From Macrostomum lignano (Eukaryota), in NCBI GenBank assembly GCA_002269645.1, contig NIVC01000330.1, forward strand, positions 369,313 to 433,312: a stretch of 64,000 nt of DNA. The letters run 5' to 3'. The notes under the pieces were generated by a model. The model ran no database searches. It saw only the letters and a program-made list of their open reading frames with translations, and was not told the DNA's origin. Numbering within the stretch: position 1 is the first letter of the stretch; each line of letters starts with the position of its first letter. Shown one piece after another: positions 43,790 through 53,319 of this stretch. A program made the translations under genes and the position numbers.

Positions 43790-44178
43790 CTCAGGTAATT
43801 TCCGTTGGGGATTTCCCCTTGGGTAATTTCCATTGGGGATTCTCCATCGGATTTTTATTATGGATTTCCCCTCGGGTAATTTCTACTTGGGAATTCCCCT
43901 CAGGTTATTTCTATTGGGGCATTCCCGTTGGTTTATTTCTATTGGGGAATTCCCCGGTTTCCCAGGTGCTTGCATTAGGAGGCATTGCCTTCGGGTTTTC
44001 TAGATAGATAGGGTCTTTTCATAGTGAGTGGTTAAGCTACTGAAACACTGGAGACGATCGACCCAAGCGAGGCTTCAAAGACTCACTCGAACAGTTTCCT
44101 TTCAGCCAGGCCAGCCATCAGCCGGCAGGCGGCTTCAAAGCCGGCCAACAGTCCCAGGAAGTCTTCAATCTTGCGCTT
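43790..44178 (-). repeat. 389-bp direct duplicate of 52055-52443 (3' 92 nt of MSH6 exon 7 plus its GT donor and intron start)
   Basis: Appears identical by eye from ctcaggtaatttccg to caatcttgcgctt. Confidence 0.93.
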
Positions 44179-45012
44179 GTGATGATGGGGCTCAAGGGCT
44201 CGGTCCTTTCGTGCCCCTTTCCCAGACTCGGGTTCGTGTACTGACCCTGGCTACGGTCCTCCACTGACACGCGTACGACGCGGTGTCCGTCGGGACTAGG
44301 CTGTTCGAGCGTACGACGCACGACAGCCTACAGACTTGCGTACGACGCAGAGCTGCTTGGGGTGGGACCGGCGTACGACGCAGTTAATCCCTCTAAGGTG
44401 CCTAGTACAGATGCAGACCCAAATGACGTGCAAATTGGAAGGCTTACCAGCCGCGATTTCAGTCGTACAAGAAACAGCGCCGTCAGAGCAGTGGTGATCT
44501 CGATATTCTTTACTTATATATTTGTCTAGCAATTCGGCGAGGAATAGCAATTCCGCAACCAACGCTGGCACAATCGCCGAGGAGCCACGAAGACAACGAG
44601 AATGGGGTCTCACGGGGCTCTGAATAAATAGGCAGCAAACTGGGGGTTGAGGGCGCGGGATAAAGGCAGAAAAGGGGGCTTAGACATCAGCCAAGGCAAC
44701 GCATGAGCTGTACCAGCCAATCGCCGGGGCGCAGCACGGCAGACTGGGACTGGCAGCCAATCACAAACAGGGGCGGGGCAGCAAAGCTAACAAAATAATG
44801 GGCGGGGTCGCACAGGGGGGGGGGTCGCACGCAGAGCATGGGGGGTTGACTCAACAGAAAAGGTCTAGGCAGGGAGGGGAGGGGTACGCACGCGCAGAAG
44901 TGCAGGTGGGTGAGTCAGAAAATATCTAAGGAGGGGGGAGGGGGAGAGGACGGCCCACTGGCCCGGTGCAGCAACTTAGCAAAGAGCACACTGTCATAAC
45001 ACATTCATGACA
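44178..45012 (-). repeat. 3' LTR (835 bp) with promoter-like U3
   Basis: TG/CA termini; GC boxes and CCAAT boxes at about 44715-44810; TATATAAGTAAA on the minus strand near 44510-44521; short cgtacgacg repeats at 44270-44380. Confidence 0.85.
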
Positions 45013-45586
45013 CTCCCTCCCCCTAGACAAAAGTTCGAGTTCGAAAAGTCGAATATTGAAATGATGCTACTATAACAAAAAAAATTGAACAGAGGAACAA
45101 ACCGCATTTGAAAAATATTTTGGACTCGCATGGCAACTAGTTCGAACAAAAAACAAAACCGCAGTGATTATACCGTTTAAAAATGACGAAGAAACCTTCA
45201 ACATAGGATAGTGAGTACGCATCATTGGGAAGCAAAACGCAAATTTTGGGAAAAACTCACTTTAACAAAAACGCTGAAGTTCGAAAAAAACGCTAAATGT
45301 TAACAAAAAAAAAAAAAATGAAACCGTCAAACATTTACTCTCACAAGTAATACTAGCACTGCTTCCCTGCATCCCGCCGAGTACGGCCGTCGCTCTGGTG
45401 CCTCGTCTCCCTGTCGCTACTGTCGCCGGTTGCTCTGGTCGCTCTGCGCTGGTCGTCGAGTCCTGCGGTTGCTGCACAGCCGTGTCGCTCCGTCAGCACC
45501 CGTTAAGGCCGGTCCACCTCCGCTCCGCTGTCCCTGGGTCTGCACTGCAAAGTCCCTAGCCCCAAAGTCCCTAGGAAGACATAGCC

Positions 45587-46573
45587 TCAGTCAGAGCACG
45601 AATCCCACAGCCTACGGAGGGCACCCAGGACCAAACCCTGGCGTCGCAGGTCGAACAGCGGGAACACCACCATCACCGACATGTAGACAGCTTGACACGC
45701 TTGGCGACTCCACCGACGAACTCCGTGCCCCGGATACTTGCGACCGTCTCGCTCCAAGTAGCCCAGGATCTGCAGCATCAACTCCGGACCGAATTCCTTG
45801 AAATCCACCAAGGCAGTGGCGCACTTCCCCTTCAGGGCTAGCAGCACCTCAAAGATGCCCCACGAGTCGCCCTTCCGCATTGCCTGATGCAGTTTCTTCC
45901 GACTGGGTCCTACGTTCTCGAGTTCCGCGACGGTCACTGGTCGGCACGGTCTTGTCTGAAGCCGGTACGCTCTCTGCAGGTATTCTTCAATCAGGTTTCT
46001 ACATCCGGCACAATCTTCCTCCGCTTCCCATGACGTCTCAAGCTCCTCTACACCGGCCCACTGCAGCAGATACTCCGCTCCTCGCTCCGTGACTCGTACT
46101 CCTAAGACCTTCTCGACCTCGTACTCCTCCGGCAGTGTCTCACTCGCCTCGTTCATCTCTTCGTCCTGCTCATCGTCTGAGGCCTCCTCACTTGCCTCCA
46201 TCTTGACGTGCTCCTCATCCCTCCTCGCCTGTTCTCTCTCGTACGCCTCCTCAGCTAATCGGTCGCTCTCTTGTAGTCTTTCTATCTCTTCTCGGAGATC
46301 GTCGGGCATGTCGTCATCCTCTAACATTCCTTCTGCGAGCCGAAGCATCTCATCCCGGTCACGAACAGCATTTCCAAAGATATCGTACAGCTTTCTAAGG
46401 AACGGACACGACAGTATTCGGTACGCCTCTTCGCACTCCTGGAATCTCTTCCGCGTCTCCTCTGTTGCGCTCTTGTCTGGGTGCAGTTCGCGTGCTCGAC
46501 CGTAGAACGCTTTCCGAATCTGTGCCGCAGACGCCCACAGCTGCACTCCAAGACACTCGTAGAGGTCCGCCAT
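45587..46573 (-). CDS. Retrotransposon accessory ORF3: N-terminal DnaJ (J) domain, acidic linker, chromodomain, unknown C-terminal region (328 aa)
   Basis: DLYECLGV...ASAAQIRKAF...LHPDK...FQECEEAYRILSCP.LRKLYD matches the J-domain pattern with HPD; YEVEKVL...EYLLQWAG...TSWEAEEDC..C..LIEEY matches the chromodomain pattern. Confidence 0.9.
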   Translation of the reverse strand: MADLYECLGVQLWASAAQIRKAFYGRARELHPDKSATEETRKRFQECEEAYRILSCPFLRKLYDIFGNAVRDRDEMLRLAEGMLEDDDMPDDLREEIERLQESDRLAEEAYEREQARRDEEHVKMEASEEASDDEQDEEMNEASETLPEEYEVEKVLGVRVTERGAEYLLQWAGVEELETSWEAEEDCAGCRNLIEEYLQRAYRLQTRPCRPVTVAELENVGPSRKKLHQAMRKGDSWGIFEVLLALKGKCATALVDFKEFGPELMLQILGYLERDGRKYPGHGVRRWSRQACQAVYMSVMVVFPLFDLRRQGLVLGALRRLWDSCSD

Positions 46574-46672
46574 CTGTAACAGTCCGGCCTAACTCCGATG
46601 AGCAATGAGACACGCACGACATGAACCTCCCTTCCCCCTTGGCTATCCAAGCGCCGTACACCGGACCCTTCT

Positions 46673-49600
46673 TCAGTAGTGGTACACCGGGACCCCAAAC
46701 CGATCTGGCGGTCGCCGCAGACGTCTTGGTCGCCCTGCTTCCTCCTGTGCCGTCCTCACTTCCTGCTCGGGTACGTTGGCGTCGTTCGGCTCTGCCTCAT
46801 CCTCTTCGTTTTGCTCCTCGTCGTACCGCGCCTCATCAAAGTGCTCTTCTTCGTCATCGTCTGCTTCTGGACGCTCAGGTCCGGGCTCACGGTCTCCGGC
46901 CAGATTTCGGGTGTCCGGCGGAGCGTGATCTCTTGGATCTTGAAACCGCAGCTGAAGATCTTCAAACTCTTCATCTTCCTGCTCGGATTCCGGGTCCTGC
47001 GGCCCTCGCGCTGCGGTCCACCTCTGGGTCTCGCCCCGTTGCACTCTCTGCCTTCGGCTTCGTCCAGCAGCGGAGTTACCGCGTCGCGGTCTGGTTTTTC
47101 TCGAACTGGCCCTCCCAATTTCCTCTCTTGTCTCTTGACCGTCTGCCGCCTCCGTCTGAACCTGAACCGGCCGGAGATTGTTGAAGTGCACCACCTTGGT
47201 CTTCTGCGGCTGTGTCGGATCCTGCACTCGGTACAACGCATCTGACAGCTTCTCCAGGACCTTCACTGGGCCGCGCCAGTTGATATGGAACTTGCTCTTC
47301 TCTCCCATCTCCAAGCACGGATAGTACAGCAAGACAGAGTCGCCCTTCTGAATCGCTTTGCCCTTCACTTTCCGATCGTAATTCATTTTCTGCCGTCGCT
47401 GAACCGTCTCGCGTCCTTCTCGAATGCGTTCATGGGCATGAAGCAGGTTCTGCTGGATCTCTTGCACAAACAAGGGATAGCTGTCCGTCTTTCGCCTAAG
47501 GTCCTCTGGTTCGAATCCCAGCGGCATCTCCTGACCATGCAGCATGTAGTAGGGCGTGTAACCGGTGGACGCCTGGACCGTCGATCGATAAGCCATCAAG
47601 GCACTTGGCAGGTACTCCTCCCAGGCGTTCTGACCCTTCTGTACCAGATACGTGCGCAAACTGTTCTTCAGGAACCCGTTAAATCGTTCCACCTGTCCGT
47701 TGCCACTCGGGTGGTAGGCGCTCGTCCTGGTCTTCTTCACACCCAACAGCTCGCACAGCTTCCTGACGATCCCCGACTCAAAGTTCCTTCCTTGGTCTGA
47801 GTGAAGTACCCGGGGGCACCCGTGATTGGCAATCCAGCGTTCGAATAGCACCCTTGCGATCGTTGCCGCCTTCTGGTTCCGGATGGCATAAGCGTCAGGC
47901 CACTTTGAGAACGCATCTTGCACCGTGAGGATGTAGAAGTTTCCTTTCTTGCTCCGTGGCAGCGGCCCGATGACGTCTGTCATCACGATATCGAATGGGC
48001 TTGAACTCGGAATCGGCTCCATCGGTGCAATTGGTTTCTTGCCAGCCTTGGCCTTGGTGCAGTCCAAACAGGCTTTTACGTGCTCTTCGACCTCGCGGCC
48101 AAGTCCCGGCCTCCAAAACGATTGCCGCACCTTCTCCTTGGTCTTGAAAATCCCAACGTGCCCTCCACTCCGTCCACCATGAGCTTCTTCCAGCACCGCT
48201 CTCAGCATATTCCGTGGCAACACCACTTGCGGCTGACGTCCACTGGCCGTATGACACAGCAACACCTCACTGTCCGACACCTCAAGGTCACGACGTCTTT
48301 CGACAATCCTCCTTGCCGTCGGTGATATGCGTCGCAAATGCTCTTCGGTTATCTCTCCGTCGCCGTGTGCCAGCAGCTCCATCGCCTGACGAATGTCGCT
48401 GTCCATCTTCTGGCTCTCTCTGATCTCCTCCGAGGTCCACCTCTGCAATCCCAACGCGTTCACACCGATCTGCTCTTGTGCACATCCAGGACAACTCTCG
48501 CTTCCTTGATGGCGCCGACGTGGCTTCCTGGATAGAGCGTCCGCGTGTTGATGTTTCACTCCCGGACGATGTTCGATGCGATACCTGTACGGAGCCAAGA
48601 GTTCCAGCCATCTGGCCAGTTGTCCTTCTACGTCCCGCAGCGAATGCAGCCACTTCAAGCTGCTGTGATCGGTGCGCACTAGAAACTCTCGCCCCATCAG
48701 GTAATAACGAAACTTCTGTACGAAAAACACCACGGCCAGCAACTCGACTCGTGTCGTGCAGTAATTCCGTTCTTCTCGCGACAACGTCCTGCTTCCGTAA
48801 GCTATTACCTTCTCACTCCCATCTTTCTGCACCTGCGAAAGCACAGCGCCAATTCCTTCTTTTGTGCTACCGTCTGTGTCTAAAACGAATTCTCCAGCGT
48901 CCTCCGCAAAGTTTGGAAACGCCATGACCTCAGATCCCTGCAACCTTTCCTTCAGGGCCTCGAATGCGGCTTGACACTCCTTATCCCAGCTCCACGGGCA
49001 ATCATTTCGGGTCCGTCGCAGCATCGGCTCAGCAATGCGGGAAAAATCTGCGATGAATTGCCGGTAATACCCGCACAGTCCCAGGAATGACCTTACTTCC
49101 TTCACATTCCTCGGAGTTGGCCAGTCACGAATTTCGGCAATCTTTTCTGGACTCGTGGCGATCCCATCAGCTGACACTACGTGTCCCAGGAAGGTCACTG
49201 ACTTCAGCAGGAATGCGCACTTCTTCGGCTTCAGTTTGATGTTCGCTGCTCGCAACCGTCGAAAAACCGTTTGCAACCGTTCCAGGTGCTCTTCCACCGT
49301 TCGTGACCACACTAGCAGGTCGTCCAGATACACCAAACACGTCTTCCAGCACAACTTCCCCAACACCACATTCATTAGCCGGCTGAATGAAGCCGGTGCA
49401 TTTGTCAATCCAAATGGCATAACGTTCCAGGCGTACTGCTGTACCCGGTGTGAAACGCCAAAGGCCGTCTTTAGTCTGTCGCTGGGTTCCACCGCCATCT
49501 GCCAGTATCCCGACTGCATGTCCATGGTCGAAAAAATCTTGGCACCGCCTAGGCTCTCCAACAGGTCATCTGTCCTGGGCAACGGCACTGCATCCTTCTT

Positions 49601-50881
49601 GGTCACTTCATTCAGTTTCCGGTAGTCACAACAGAACCTCAGGGAACCGTCCTTCTTTTTCACGCACACCACCGGAGAGCACCATGGGGACTGGACCTCG
49701 CTGATTCTCCCAGCTTCCAGCAAGTCATCCAACTCCTCGTCCACTTCCTGCCGCAGGTACGGGGGAATCCGCCTCGCCGCTTCTTTCACAGGCCTGGCAT
49801 CTCCAGTGTCGATCTCGTGCTTCATCACCGTCGTACAGCCGAGATCCTTGGAGTCCTTAGCAAAGACAGCCCGATGTTGGGAAATCAGCTCCCTGAAGTC
49901 GGCTTCCTCCTCCTCCGACAGGCCACACGAACCCCACTCGCGGAATTCTTCGATCGGGTCCCATGCCTCCGCTTCATTCTTGGCCTCTACGTCGTCGTCC
50001 AAGCGCACCACGTTGATACCTCCGTTCGGTTCCAAAGGAATAAACCAGCCAATCGTCTCTCCTTTCTTGACCCTCTTCCTACAACTGGACGTATTCAGCA
50101 ATCTCATCGGCAGCCGTCCATCCACGCCGGGCGCTACCAGAGCTCGAGCCAGCGCCAAATCCTTCTCAGAGGCCTTCACTGACTTTTCTTCCGTTATGCC
50201 GACAGATCCGCAGTTTCTTGCGCCCTTTTTCTCTACCCTGGCTGGCATGATCACTTCTTGCGCCGGTTCCAGGAATACCGTTGTCTCGGCTTTGATTCGA
50301 CACACCACGGGCAGCTCGCCTTTCTGCCGTATCGGAACTCTAACATCGCCCACTCGAAAGACAAACTCTGAATAGTTGATGACGCAACGATGCTGTTTGA
50401 AAAATTCGGACCCGAGAATGACGTCATAGCGCAATCCGTCCACTACAAAGAAATTCGCTGACCACCGCTCGCCGCCAATCTCCACGTCCAGCACAATACA
50501 GCCTCTCATCCTCATCGCACCTCCATTGGCCGTTGAAAGGGCCCCGTCCATCATCGTCAGTCTCTCTCTCACTTCTTGCGGCAGCCTCAGGAAAACATCA
50601 CAGCTCAGCACTGACACACTCGCACCACTGTCTAACAGCAGAGCCACTGGCTTGCCGGAAACCGCACCGGAAATAAAAACTGTCAAGGGCTCCGTTGATA
50701 CCGACGAACCCCCCTCTTGAACCAGGTTGCTCTTTAAATTCCCATCACCAGAGACGCACTTGGATTTATTTACAGAGTTAGTGCCCAACCCCGGTTCCTC
50801 GCTCCTGGGAGACTTCACTTCCTGGCAGGGTCCCGACTCTCCCCGGTCGGTCCCCTCGGCCCGTTTCCCGACTTCGGACAC
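46673..50881 (-). CDS. Gypsy pol (protease-RT-RNase H-integrase), uninterrupted 1402 codons, probably made by -1 frameshift from gag
   Basis: LLDSGA; YLDD; DTDGS...GIGAVL; H-H-C-C zinc finger; TDVIGP...SDQG...GQVERFN; GPV(Y/F)-like C-terminal region and acidic tail; no ATG at the start of the frame. Confidence 0.96.
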   Translation of the reverse strand: MSEVGKRAEGTDRGESGPCQEVKSPRSEEPGLGTNSVNKSKCVSGDGNLKSNLVQEGGSSVSTEPLTVFISGAVSGKPVALLLDSGASVSVLSCDVFLRLPQEVRERLTMMDGALSTANGGAMRMRGCIVLDVEIGGERWSANFFVVDGLRYDVILGSEFFKQHRCVINYSEFVFRVGDVRVPIRQKGELPVVCRIKAETTVFLEPAQEVIMPARVEKKGARNCGSVGITEEKSVKASEKDLALARALVAPGVDGRLPMRLLNTSSCRKRVKKGETIGWFIPLEPNGGINVVRLDDDVEAKNEAEAWDPIEEFREWGSCGLSEEEEADFRELISQHRAVFAKDSKDLGCTTVMKHEIDTGDARPVKEAARRIPPYLRQEVDEELDDLLEAGRISEVQSPWCSPVVCVKKKDGSLRFCCDYRKLNEVTKKDAVPLPRTDDLLESLGGAKIFSTMDMQSGYWQMAVEPSDRLKTAFGVSHRVQQYAWNVMPFGLTNAPASFSRLMNVVLGKLCWKTCLVYLDDLLVWSRTVEEHLERLQTVFRRLRAANIKLKPKKCAFLLKSVTFLGHVVSADGIATSPEKIAEIRDWPTPRNVKEVRSFLGLCGYYRQFIADFSRIAEPMLRRTRNDCPWSWDKECQAAFEALKERLQGSEVMAFPNFAEDAGEFVLDTDGSTKEGIGAVLSQVQKDGSEKVIAYGSRTLSREERNYCTTRVELLAVVFFVQKFRYYLMGREFLVRTDHSSLKWLHSLRDVEGQLARWLELLAPYRYRIEHRPGVKHQHADALSRKPRRRHQGSESCPGCAQEQIGVNALGLQRWTSEEIRESQKMDSDIRQAMELLAHGDGEITEEHLRRISPTARRIVERRRDLEVSDSEVLLCHTASGRQPQVVLPRNMLRAVLEEAHGGRSGGHVGIFKTKEKVRQSFWRPGLGREVEEHVKACLDCTKAKAGKKPIAPMEPIPSSSPFDIVMTDVIGPLPRSKKGNFYILTVQDAFSKWPDAYAIRNQKAATIARVLFERWIANHGCPRVLHSDQGRNFESGIVRKLCELLGVKKTRTSAYHPSGNGQVERFNGFLKNSLRTYLVQKGQNAWEEYLPSALMAYRSTVQASTGYTPYYMLHGQEMPLGFEPEDLRRKTDSYPLFVQEIQQNLLHAHERIREGRETVQRRQKMNYDRKVKGKAIQKGDSVLLYYPCLEMGEKSKFHINWRGPVKVLEKLSDALYRVQDPTQPQKTKVVHFNNLRPVQVQTEAADGQETREEIGRASSRKTRPRRGNSAAGRSRRQRVQRGETQRWTAARGPQDPESEQEDEEFEDLQLRFQDPRDHAPPDTRNLAGDREPGPERPEADDDEEEHFDEARYDEEQNEEDEAEPNDANVPEQEVRTAQEEAGRPRRLRRPPDRFGVPVYHY

Positions 50882-51939
50882 TTGAAGGATAGGTGGCCTT
50901 CACCGTTGCACTTGTGACATCGTACTGGCGATTTCCCGTTTTCACTCTTCTGACTGGTCTTCTTCGGACACTTTGATGAGATATGGCCCCACTCTCGACA
51001 TGAAAAACACTGCACAGCCTTCCGACTCGCCGGGGTCGGCTCTGCCGCTTCTTCAGACCTCCGCTCCTCCATCTCTTTCATTCGCATCTCCATGGCCGCC
51101 AGCTGTTTTCGAAGCATCTCGACCTCACTGCTTTCGGAAGCCTCCTTTCGGGTTTCGGTCGTGACAGCGCAAACGGCTCTTTTCGATACCTGACCTGGTG
51201 GACCATGACTTGCCCTAACCGCCGCTTCCAGCTGATGCACCAGACGCATTGCGTCCGCTAACGTATCCGGCTGGCTCATGTACAGTCGCTCACGCACAGC
51301 CACCCCCGCACGGACGCCTCGCATAAATCGCTCTTTCGCAAGATCATCGCGCACATCGGCAGGCGCATCAGGAAAGGCGTTTGCGACCAACTCAATCACA
51401 GCTTCAGAGAAATCTTCTACCGACTCCTTCTCGCTCTGCTCTCTATTGCTCAGTTCTGTGCGGTAGTCGACGACGGTACGGTGCATAGTGAACCTATCCC
51501 TCAAGGCCTGGGTAAATTCTTCGAACTGCAGGTCGTCATCAAGGTTCATGTTGTCAACAACTTGGAAGGTGCTGAAGTCTAGGTTGCTGAGCAACTGAGC
51601 GCGCCGATTCTGCATCGGAATCTGCATGGCATCGCAATAAGCTACGAAGAGCCTCAACCACTTCACGAAATTCATTCCTGGAGCATACTTCACCGGCCTC
51701 TGAATCCTGAGGGCACCCGCTTGCTGCATGTTCTGCTGAATCTGGGCAGTCAAGGCGGCGACCAGATCATTAACACCAAAGGCTCCAGCAGCACCTCCAG
51801 CCGCACCTTCAGCCGCACCTCCAGCCGCACCTCCAGCAGCACCTCCAGCCGCACCTCCAGCCGCACCTCCGGCAGCACCTCCAGCAGCACCTCCAGCCGC
51901 ACCTCCAGCCGCACCTCCAGCAGCACCTCCAGCATCCAT
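50815..51939 (-). CDS. Gypsy gag (374 aa) with two CCHC knuckles and an N-terminal (GAAG) repeat
   Basis: CFSCREWGHISSKC and CHKCNGEGHLSFKC; capsid-like core REQSEKESVEDFS; ATG about 90 nt downstream of the PBS. Confidence 0.92.
   Translation of the reverse strand: MDAGGAAGGAAGGAAGGAAGGAAGGAAGGAAGGAAGGAAGGAAEGAAGGAAGAFGVNDLVAALTAQIQQNMQQAGALRIQRPVKYAPGMNFVKWLRLFVAYCDAMQIPMQNRRAQLLSNLDFSTFQVVDNMNLDDDLQFEEFTQALRDRFTMHRTVVDYRTELSNREQSEKESVEDFSEAVIELVANAFPDAPADVRDDLAKERFMRGVRAGVAVRERLYMSQPDTLADAMRLVHQLEAAVRASHGPPGQVSKRAVCAVTTETRKEASESSEVEMLRKQLAAMEMRMKEMEERRSEEAAEPTPASRKAVQCFSCREWGHISSKCPKKTSQKSENGKSPVRCHKCNGEGHLSFKCPKSGNGPRGPTGESRDPARK
50863..50869 (-). promoter_or_regulatory. -1 ribosomal frameshift slippery heptamer G GGA AAC with a downstream GC-rich hairpin
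   Basis: X XXY YYZ in the gag frame inside the gag/pol overlap; pol is in the -1 frame; downstream CCGAC...GTCGG stem. Confidence 0.75.
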
Positions 51940-52351
51940 ACCACGGCGTCACAGTTTCTAACCTTAATTTCTCACAATATTCCGCGCCTCGAGCTTTCTT
52001 CCTTACTTAGTCTTCCACAGCGCAGGGTCCCACCAAGGATGCCAATGGTAATTTCTCAGGTAATTTCCGTTGGGGATTTCCCCTTGGGTAATTTCCATTG
52101 GGGATTCTCCATCGGATTTTTATTATGGATTTCCCCTCGGGTAATTTCTACTTGGGAATTCCCCTCAGGTTATTTCTATTGGGGCATTCCCGTTGGTTTA
52201 TTTCTATTGGGGAATTCCCCGGTTTCCCAGGTGCTTGCATTAGGAGGCATTGCCTTCGGGTTTTCTAGATAGATAGGGTCTTTTCATAGTGAGTGGTTAA
52301 GCTACTGAAACACTGGAGACGATCGACCCAAGCGAGGCTTCAAAGACTCAC

Positions 52352-53319
52352 TCGAACAGTTTCCTTTCAGCCAGGCCAGCCATCAGCCGGCAGGCGGCTT
52401 CAAAGCCGGCCAACAGTCCCAGGAAGTCTTCAATCTTGCGCTTATTGTATTGCACAGCTTCGAACAGCACAGCCCGCTGATCCGGATGGTCCGTGCCGGC
52501 AGGCCGGCAGCCGAACACGTGCATCTTAGCCGTCAGCTTCTCTAAATCTGGCAGCTTCTTCAGGCCGGCTGATAATTCCTGGCAGACTTGTCGATCGGCC
52601 GACACCAGTTCAGCGACGGCCTCCTGGCGGCGTTGGATCGCTTCCGGATGGCAGAGCGGAGCGCACAGCCACTGCTGCAGCAGCCGCTTGCCGAAGGCCG
52701 TGCCGCAGCGGTCCAGCCGGCTGTACAGGGTGGCCTCAGATGACCCGCCGCCTCCTCTCTGCTGCTCAGCGAAGACATCCAGATTGGCCAGCGCGATGCC
52801 GTCAAGCACAGCGTGAGTCTGGCTGGCGTAGAATGGCGGCGCATCAGCTGCTTTCATCTCGGCCTCATCAGCGCCAGCCTCATCGGCAGCTGAGCCGGAG
52901 TCTGCCGGCCTGTAGACGGCGAAGTTGCGCATAGACAGCACGTCGTGATCGATGAGGCAGCGGCTCAGGTAGTGCACCAGGCCGCCAAGGGCGCTCACTC
53001 CGAGCTCCCACTGTCTGGCCGCGGTCCGGCCAAGGCTGTCCGACTCGCATAGCAACGGTTGCAGACCCTCGGGCCAGGCGAACTTGCCGTTATCAACAAA
53101 GTAAGGCGCCTCGGCCAGGTGTGCCAGGCACCGGCCGCTGTCCCAGAACTCGCGGCCGGGCGTCAGCGCCTCTTTCGGCACGGCGCGGAGGCAGCCGTTC
53201 AGGATGGCCAGAGTGGCCGGGCGGAGTCGGCCGCGCTCGTGCAGCAGCTGGGCAGGCGGATGGTGCGCTATGAGGGTGCGCAGCCGGGAGCAGTGGCAGT
53301 CGTCGGCGAACTGTCCCAC
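52352..53319 (-). CDS. MSH6: MSH6 exon 7 (connector and core domains)
   Basis: VGQFADDCHCSRLRTL...LDGIALANL...TAFGKRLLQQWLCAPL...LPDLEKL; gcgcag acceptor, GTGAGT donor, phase 0 to 2. Confidence 0.95.

Follow-up and report, generated by a model that had tools for sequence, protein, structure and literature searches.

Why does a retrotransposon of Macrostomum lignano carry a third gene in which a J-domain is combined with a chromodomain? The gene, ORF3, is located in a stretch of 64,000 nt (contig NIVC01000330.1 of GCA_002269645.1, positions 369,313 to 433,312; G000:C330 in the 764-Mb genome searched), which is called the window below. A sequence-only reading had placed an intact 328-aa sense ORF between the pol stop and the polypurine tract (PPT)/3' LTR and proposed that it encodes an adaptor which brings Hsp70 to chromatin or methyl-lysine-marked proteins. 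The ORF is stop-free, and its coordinates were confirmed: It starts 99 nt past the pol stop (46673), and its end precedes PPT and 3' LTR. The features of the window copy are, in the direction of transcription:

52055..52442, minus strand: 388-nt duplication of MSH6 exon end and intron, upstream copy, at the place expected for the 5' LTR (MutS_III match)
52027..52044, minus strand: primer binding site (PBS), 18 nt, complement of the host tRNA-Arg(TCT) 3' end plus CCA
52002..52006, minus strand: GTAAG in the 5' leader, putative splice donor
50815..51939, minus strand: gag, 374 aa, two CCHC zinc knuckles
50863..50869, minus strand: heptamer GGGAAAC where gag and pol overlap, candidate site of -1 frameshifting (from sequence)
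46673..50899, minus strand: pol (PR-RT-RNase H-integrase), a single 1408-aa frame overlapping the gag end
46574..46576, minus strand: CAG abutting the ORF3 ATG, putative splice acceptor (YAG in 4/8 family contexts)
45587..46573, minus strand: ORF3, 328-aa accessory protein (stop-free; 17 full-length stop-free genome matches; purifying selection)
46382..46567, minus strand: J-domain, aa 3-64 (Pfam PF00226, E 4.7e-16; J-domain fold; Hsp70 model)
46475-46483, minus strand: HPD motif, aa 31-33, within the J-domain
46127..46372, minus strand: conserved helical extension, then acidic linker, aa 68-149 (net charge -24)
45971..46123, minus strand: HP1-like chromodomain, aa 151-201 (Pfam PF00385, E 1.4e-12; PDB sequence matches)
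45590..45934, minus strand: basic five-helix C-terminal domain, aa 214-328 (alignment; model of the family D homologue; pI 9.9)
45013..45024, minus strand: PPT
44178..45012, minus strand: 3' LTR, 835 nt, TGT...ACA, sole LTR of the window copy
43790..44177, minus strand: 388-nt MSH6 duplication, downstream copy, adjoining the 3' LTR

The element and its window copy

The element is a Ty3/Gypsy retrotransposon. In the window copy, Pfam finds gag followed by PR-RT-RNase H-integrase, with RT, RNase H and integrase above the Pfam cut-off and a weak protease match (E 0.05). Paired TG...CA LTRs, a PBS, a PPT and a short target duplication are present in its family (A; the letters A-M are labels coined here); the window copy itself lacks the 5' LTR. 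By the features tested, the element is neither an errantivirus nor a chromovirus. An identity as env-bearing errantivirus was rejected, because ORF3 has no Pfam env family and no transmembrane segment by hydropathy (19-residue peak 1.35; below 1.6 in 9/9 ORF3 proteins). A chromodomain on the integrase C-terminus, the chromovirus feature, was rejected as well: A stop codon and the 99-nt gap separate pol from ORF3, and a Pfam Chromo match was not found in the window pol. By the slippery-heptamer rule for -1 frameshifting, GGGAAAC at 50863-50869 sits in the expected register.

The nearest named RT is that of Mlig-id38, a Gmr1/Osvaldo element with 54% identity over RT-RNase H (38% for the CsRN1 element Mlig-id55). 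In an RT tree built without Mag, Mdg3 or GyDB references, Mlig-id38 and locus L053 are sister to the ORF3 lineage, which may be Gmr1/Osvaldo-like. The end of pol (46673-46740) encodes a basic R-x-R-x-x-P-x-R-[YF] tail, which is kept across the ORF3 lineage, family J included, and is missing from Mlig-id38 and L053; we take it to resemble nucleosome-binding arginine anchors. Mlig-id38 differs in lacking ORF3 and in having a heat shock element (PMC12801592), whereas a canonical three-unit element was found neither in the LTR nor in the internal region of the window family. The main text of PMC12801592 contains no 'DnaJ', 'chromodomain' or 'additional ORF'.

The window copy lies in a coding exon of MSH6 and has no 5' LTR, a point that had escaped the sequence-only reading. 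Identical 388-nt pieces of MSH6, which span an exon end and intron sequence, flank it on either side, and this MSH6 copy is disrupted. The chimeric gene model P0155, whose pol residues are slightly different, has the same MSH6 peptide on either side of the element; this favours, short of proof, a real rearrangement over an error of GCA_002269645.1 alone. The duplication could have arisen by repair from an empty homologue after insertion, by aberrant integration or as a haplotype chimera. Minisatellite arrays with units of 8-52 nt are abundant in the window (4247-58509), several of them within MSH6 introns. In the full-length copy L036, the pol frame is interrupted; its two LTRs align with 831 matches, 0 mismatches and 3 gap columns, and the target duplication is 4 nt long. 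These near-identical LTRs indicate that family A moved recently. Among 29 loci scanned, 23 LTR ends with 19 distinct flanks were found.

The message for ORF3 is probably spliced or trans-spliced, since a candidate acceptor precedes the ATG: YAG abuts the ATG in 4/8 contexts (A, B, G and D, with B and G close kin), and in the other four, AG is located 1-16 nt upstream. Additional ORFs of Ty3/Gypsy elements are typically expressed from spliced messages (PMC5408684). Contigs of four runs, only guessed to be RNA, cover 30/30 bins and contain the LTR-to-PBS junction; in these contigs, which are blind to level, strand and rare forms, no splice joint to ORF3 was found. The heat-shock table of PMC12801592 has no row for Chromo (PF00385) or TatD, and its six DnaJ rows cannot be assigned to ORF3.

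ORF3: domains, families and selection

The J-domain of ORF3 matches Pfam DnaJ with 59.1 bits (cut-off 27.8), and the chromodomain matches Pfam Chromo with 47.7 bits (cut-off 25.1). The sequence-only reading had set the HPD at aa 31-33 and the chromodomain at about aa 151-200, and both domains were found there. The acidic linker that it had described is borne out by the net charge given above, and the C-terminal residues it had left unassigned correspond to a basic, predicted five-helix domain. The model of full ORF3 (pLDDT 73, pTM 0.40) is confident for J-domain and C-terminal helices and low for aa 132-191. Its predicted J-domain superimposes on many J-domains with an rmsd of about 1-2 Å (Foldseek E 0.002 at best for the whole model) and has the HPD between helices II and III, as in class C J-domain proteins. 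The best PDB sequence matches of the chromodomain are Swi6 (E 1.9e-10), CBX5 and CBX1, and no Polycomb chain is among the 27 PDB matches listed. Group I chromodomains have the aromatic cage Y24, W45 and Y48 of HP1 (PMC3350952). At these positions, family A has Tyr151, Trp172 and Val175 and thus lacks the triple aromatic cage, whereas the variant A' has Phe, Trp and Phe, all three aromatic. Due to Val175, methyl-lysine reading is possibly weak or lost in family A.

For the C-terminal domain of family D, five helices are predicted (pLDDT 88.6, pTM 0.82). It has no match in Pfam or the ESM Atlas and none by Foldseek at E<=0.001 in PDB or BFVD; its best VIA match, M-Sec (Z 8.0, rmsd 3.9 over 117 residues), is in the range of generic helical bundles. 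Its basic character (pI 9.7-11.8) is found in 9/9 ORF3 proteins, the acidic linker (net charge -9 to -30) in 8/9. Apart from these elements, the helical domain turned up only in three database relatives: P0003 (76%, with chromodomain), P0026 and P0034 (both without chromodomain). When the context of these three was sought, a metagenome scan gave only a bacterial DnaJ and viral scans gave no match. Among the best 8000 candidates scored in profile searches, no additional ORF3 member emerged.

Judged by homology, ORF3 is shared by no fewer than seven further Gypsy families of this RT lineage; it follows pol in the single representative read for each of the families B, C, D, E, F, G and H. Near-full matches number 21 in family B (20 stop-free) and 14 in family C; family H has nine full-length stop-free matches, and its intact ORF3 comprises 558 aa. 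Common to all ORF3s are the J-domain, the conserved helical extension, the linker and the C-terminal domain (weak in H, E 0.0014). The conserved core is J-domain plus helical domain. Nothing more was found with Pfam in families B, C, D and E or in two of the database relatives. Among the ORF3 families, the chromodomain is confined to A/A'. Families F and H have a TatD-like domain at the ORF3 end instead, and in the copies of family I seen, only the TatD-like piece of ORF3 is left. Such a fusion to the ORF3 core occurs at L051:3219-4892 (G000:C647) and also at L056 and L049. Pfam TatD matches with E 9e-5 in family H and 1.6e-7 in family I. The metal-binding His, His and Asp that follow the GE motif of TatD have catalytic roles. 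Compared to 2gzx, the family H domain keeps GE, and both His as well as the Asp of ETD are replaced; an assignment as TatD DNase was therefore rejected, and the module is catalytically degenerate.

The ORF3s of A, A', B, C, D, E and G, where intact or sampled, retain the HPD, as do the three database relatives and one of the two family F copies read. Family H has lost the motif, so recruitment of Hsp70 is no general requirement within the clade. No ORF3 was found in the one copy read of family J, the sister of H, which argues that the gene is dispensable; likewise, none was found at L052, L053 and L055. Where L052 was compared by eye with the published Mlig-id38, the two agree at either end of the pol stretch. 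An RT-RNase H tree was built from 14 rows, with A', D2, M and duplicate rows left out and the CsRN1 element Mlig-id55 as long outgroup. In this tree, A-J, ten rows in all, lie together on one side of a branch (support 84/85, not starred). This side splits into F/I/H/J (99/97) and A/B/C/D/E/G (92/96). On this tree, the simplest reading would be a single ORF3 gain followed by loss.

In the A' form (L030 = G000:C455, C1935, L039, L040), the RT is 93-96% identical to that of A, ORF3 is only about 58% identical, and the last 47 ORF3 codons are again nearly identical (dS 0.055). This pattern suggests that the ORF3 of A' was exchanged by recombination. Other arrangements were encountered, too. The family E copies L046 (G000:C506) and L034 (G000:C20) are internally deleted or duplicated; in one of them, a deletion joins RNase H in frame with the J-domain, and this is the annotated gene Mlig034239g2. 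A 1449-aa open frame with N-terminal J-domain at L047:223-4572 (G000:C575), which occurs in several copies, with J-domain matches also on C3488 (twice), C1744 and C1901, was rejected as a pol fusion, since retroelement domains are absent by eye. P0106 (263 aa) is an independent protein with DnaJ and chromodomain but without the ORF3 helical domain; it may represent a further fusion or a chimera made by gene prediction, and no viral contig for it was found in the viral scan.

Is ORF3 more than a chance ORF or a one-off capture of a host gene? At 17 places in the genome, the window included, all 328 aa are matched at 98-100% and stop-free (a lower bound, in which duplicated haplotypes are counted), so ORF3 is not due to chance. 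For co-segregation, 123/150 RT rows were crossed with ORF3 matches, and 27 rows at 54-58% identity were left out. ORF3 was found downstream of RT in 24/24 rows at 99-100% identity, in three of nine at 88-98% (four of the misses are 126-aa RT fragments), in 24/27 at 65%, in 18/20 at 62-64% and in 9/43 at 59-61%, many of the 43 being later assigned to family H. Among 16 ORF3 copies, 27 distinct synonymous and 9 non-synonymous changes were counted, each once as the copies are related, on 234.5 and 749.5 sites, respectively. The resulting ratio of 0.10 (binomial p 1.4e-10) is far from the neutral value of about 1. Between A and A', the dN/dS values are 0.06-0.12 (J-domain, with saturated dS), 0.13 (C-terminal domain, aa 214-280) and 0.28 (chromodomain); between B and G, 0.10 and 0.21 were obtained. 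ORF3 is under purifying selection both within and between families.

The closest database protein is an M. lignano gene model titled 'hypothetical' or 'J domain-containing protein'. Identity to ORF3 does not exceed about 50% for non-element J-domains and is 33-37% for host chromodomains. In a J-domain tree, 10/11 element J-domains cluster with weak support (0.71), family E is located outside, and no host donor was identified. Retention in all close RT copies, purifying selection and the lack of a close host gene argue against a one-off capture. Of the outcomes by which the sequence-only reading could have failed, neither the capture of a near-identical host gene by this copy alone nor a dN/dS of about 1 with frequent stops occurred. 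ORF3 is an old, selected and modular accessory gene.

What ORF3 might do

J-domains recruit and activate Hsp70. The ORF3 J-domain (aa 1-72) was modelled together with host Hsp70 (aa 1-530, L058) and ATP. The model scored 0.68, compared to 0.00 for the best of three controls, and because a solved complex of this kind exists (5NRO), this value indicates likeness to solved complexes, not binding. At least 93% of contacts recur between runs, the partner pLDDT is at least 83, and the modelled interface comprises helix II, HPD and helix III in the canonical J-domain manner. The docking mark is reached by 51/78 solved and 2/108 mismatched pairs (eukaryotes 71/105 and 2/126). In the HPD-bearing families, the J-domain probably recruits and activates host Hsp70.

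From the adaptor proposed at the outset, the Hsp70 part found support, with a selected ORF3 and a J-domain that could be modelled on Hsp70, although family H has lost the HPD. Its chromatin part did not hold in general: The chromodomain does not belong to the conserved core. The reading that we prefer, with a little less than even confidence and by analogy to T antigens, is that ORF3 may serve as an Hsp70-recruiting adaptor on the element's own chromatin or RNA. According to HPD, fold and model, the J-domain would bring in and activate host Hsp70. The basic helical domain, to go by its charge and conservation, would hold the client, most likely element DNA/RNA or a protein bound there. The variable slot would provide a second handle: in A/A' the chromodomain for methylated chromatin, in F/H the degenerate TatD-like fold for nucleic acids. 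Hsp70 might then strip silencing or RNA-bound complexes off the element, which would be expressed. It was counted in favour that both add-on folds, chromodomain and TatD, bind chromatin or nucleic acid. A precedent for repressor disassembly is the polyomavirus T antigen J-domain, which breaks Rb-E2F complexes (PMC8894888), and DnaJ proteins activate methylated genes together with methylation readers, although these SDJ proteins are called Hsp70-independent (PMC7827474). Against the preferred reading count the helical domain without fold match, the nine intact full-length ORF3 copies of family H that lack the HPD, the one copy of family J without ORF3, the incomplete cage of family A and the absence of a chromatin reader from most ORF3s.

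The same J-domain and basic helical domain might instead act in the particle. ORF3 would then deliver Hsp70 to the packaged RNA, to RT or to Gag and thereby help in assembly, in uncoating or in the maturation of RT. Auxilin and the hepadnaviruses, in which RT needs Hsp70/Hsp40, offer analogies. T antigen J-domains influence virion assembly, too (PMC8894888). Both domains are constant in families without chromatin reader, and the basic domain could bind genomic RNA. However, it is hard to see what a selected chromodomain (dN/dS 0.28) would do in a cytoplasmic particle, and the close relatives without ORF3 (J, Mlig-id38, L053) keep intact pol frames. We regard a particle-stage co-chaperone as rather unlikely, yet likelier than the other alternatives. 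The degenerate modules, i.e. the J-domain without HPD in H, the incomplete cage in A and the TatD-like domain minus most catalytic residues, would also fit a decoy that diverts Hsp70 or competes with PIWI-stabilising J-proteins or HP1, by which silencing is lowered in trans. In planarians, DNAJA1 stabilises the PIWI protein SMEDWI-2 (PMC11663942). As a pure decoy leaves the conserved element-specific helical domain unexplained, we give this little credence.

It seems improbable that ORF3 ties the integration complex to heterochromatin in place of an integrase-fused chromodomain. The chromodomain is HP1-like, A' has all three aromatic cage residues, and the MAGGY chromodomain binds H3K9me2/3 (PMC3350952), but the ORF3 chromodomain is separate from integrase and absent in seven other families, and family A has Val175. 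Of the three roles once proposed, the other two being particle or RT maturation and dismantling of silencing complexes, integration targeting has least in its favour, with a chromodomain off integrase and the window copy in a coding exon. That ORF3 is a passenger, a captured piece of a host gene without function for the element, would agree with its loss in J, its truncation in I and its listing as an ordinary J-domain protein by NCBI and UniRef. This explanation is largely refuted by dN/dS values of 0.06-0.28, by the distance from non-element J-domains and host chromodomains, by a helical domain confined to these elements and three relatives and by the preservation of ORF3 across RT lineages only 57-65% identical, and we consider it highly improbable.

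The retention of ORF3 and its exchangeable domains suggest that these elements recruit host chaperone machinery for their own use. More specifically, though doubtful enough to be put forward tentatively, the lineage might have evolved a modular Hsp70-recruiting effector aimed at silencing complexes, with modules that are exchangeable and traded between families by recombination.

Known systems and significance

ORF3s as such are not new. Bdelloid Ty3/Gypsy elements carry a DEDDy exonuclease or a GDSL lipase in the same position between pol and 3' LTR and likewise show family-specific gain and loss (PMC5408684). Their cargo differs from the one described here, in which a J-domain co-chaperone comes with a helical domain and with exchangeable modules of chromo or TatD-like type; in PMC5408684, 'DnaJ' and 'TatD' have 0 occurrences. 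HP1-like chromodomains are found in the Ty3/Gypsy chromoviruses (MAGGY, plant CHD_I/CHD_II; PMC3350952) and in chromodomain-bearing errantiviruses (PMC13524379). In chromoviruses, the chromodomain is located at the integrase C-terminus, whereas here it is part of a separate ORF behind a J-domain. The cage differs as well: In ORF3 of family A, only the third of its residues is missing, while in CHD_II, the first is absent and the third usually so (PMC3350952).

Polyomavirus T antigens also combine, in a selfish element, an N-terminal HPDK J-domain with a client-binding part (PMC8894888). They belong to a DNA virus, and ORF3 has no LXCXE, helicase or origin-binding domain. No sequence link was found beyond the generic J-domain, so the analogy concerns the mode of action only. 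Arabidopsis SUVH1/3-SDJ resembles ORF3 in that the reader of a repressive mark is paired with a DnaJ-type protein and activates transcription (PMC7827474). These are, in contrast, separate host proteins that read DNA methylation independently of Hsp70, whereas ORF3 is one transposon-encoded chain with HPD. In the accessible literature, as distinct from Repbase, Dfam, GyDB and an earlier LTR classification of M. lignano, a transposon-encoded J-domain was not found, in line with the earlier expectation that this architecture is undescribed. The DnaJ mentioned in PMC9940879 is unrelated to its Gypsy element. A study of transposon-chromodomain fusions (10.1101/2021.11.30.470311) contains no DnaJ and no Macrostomum in its text, and its supplements may list relevant fusions. 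Within these sources, an ORF3 that encodes a J-domain co-chaperone with exchangeable modules seems to be a new form of this known kind of gene.

Retroelements borrow host chaperones, and M. lignano has RNAi. Transgenesis is available, too (PMC12801592). Many M. lignano gene models called 'J domain-containing protein' are transposon genes. Families with chromodomain, with TatD-like domain, without module, without HPD and without ORF3 form a natural comparison series. A J-domain protein that is encoded by the element itself and selected across families with swapped targeting domains provides a handle on resistance to chromatin/piRNA silencing. If the proposed effector is real, it would represent a transposon-encoded, chaperone-based anti-silencing system and thereby a counterpart of the T antigen J-domain.
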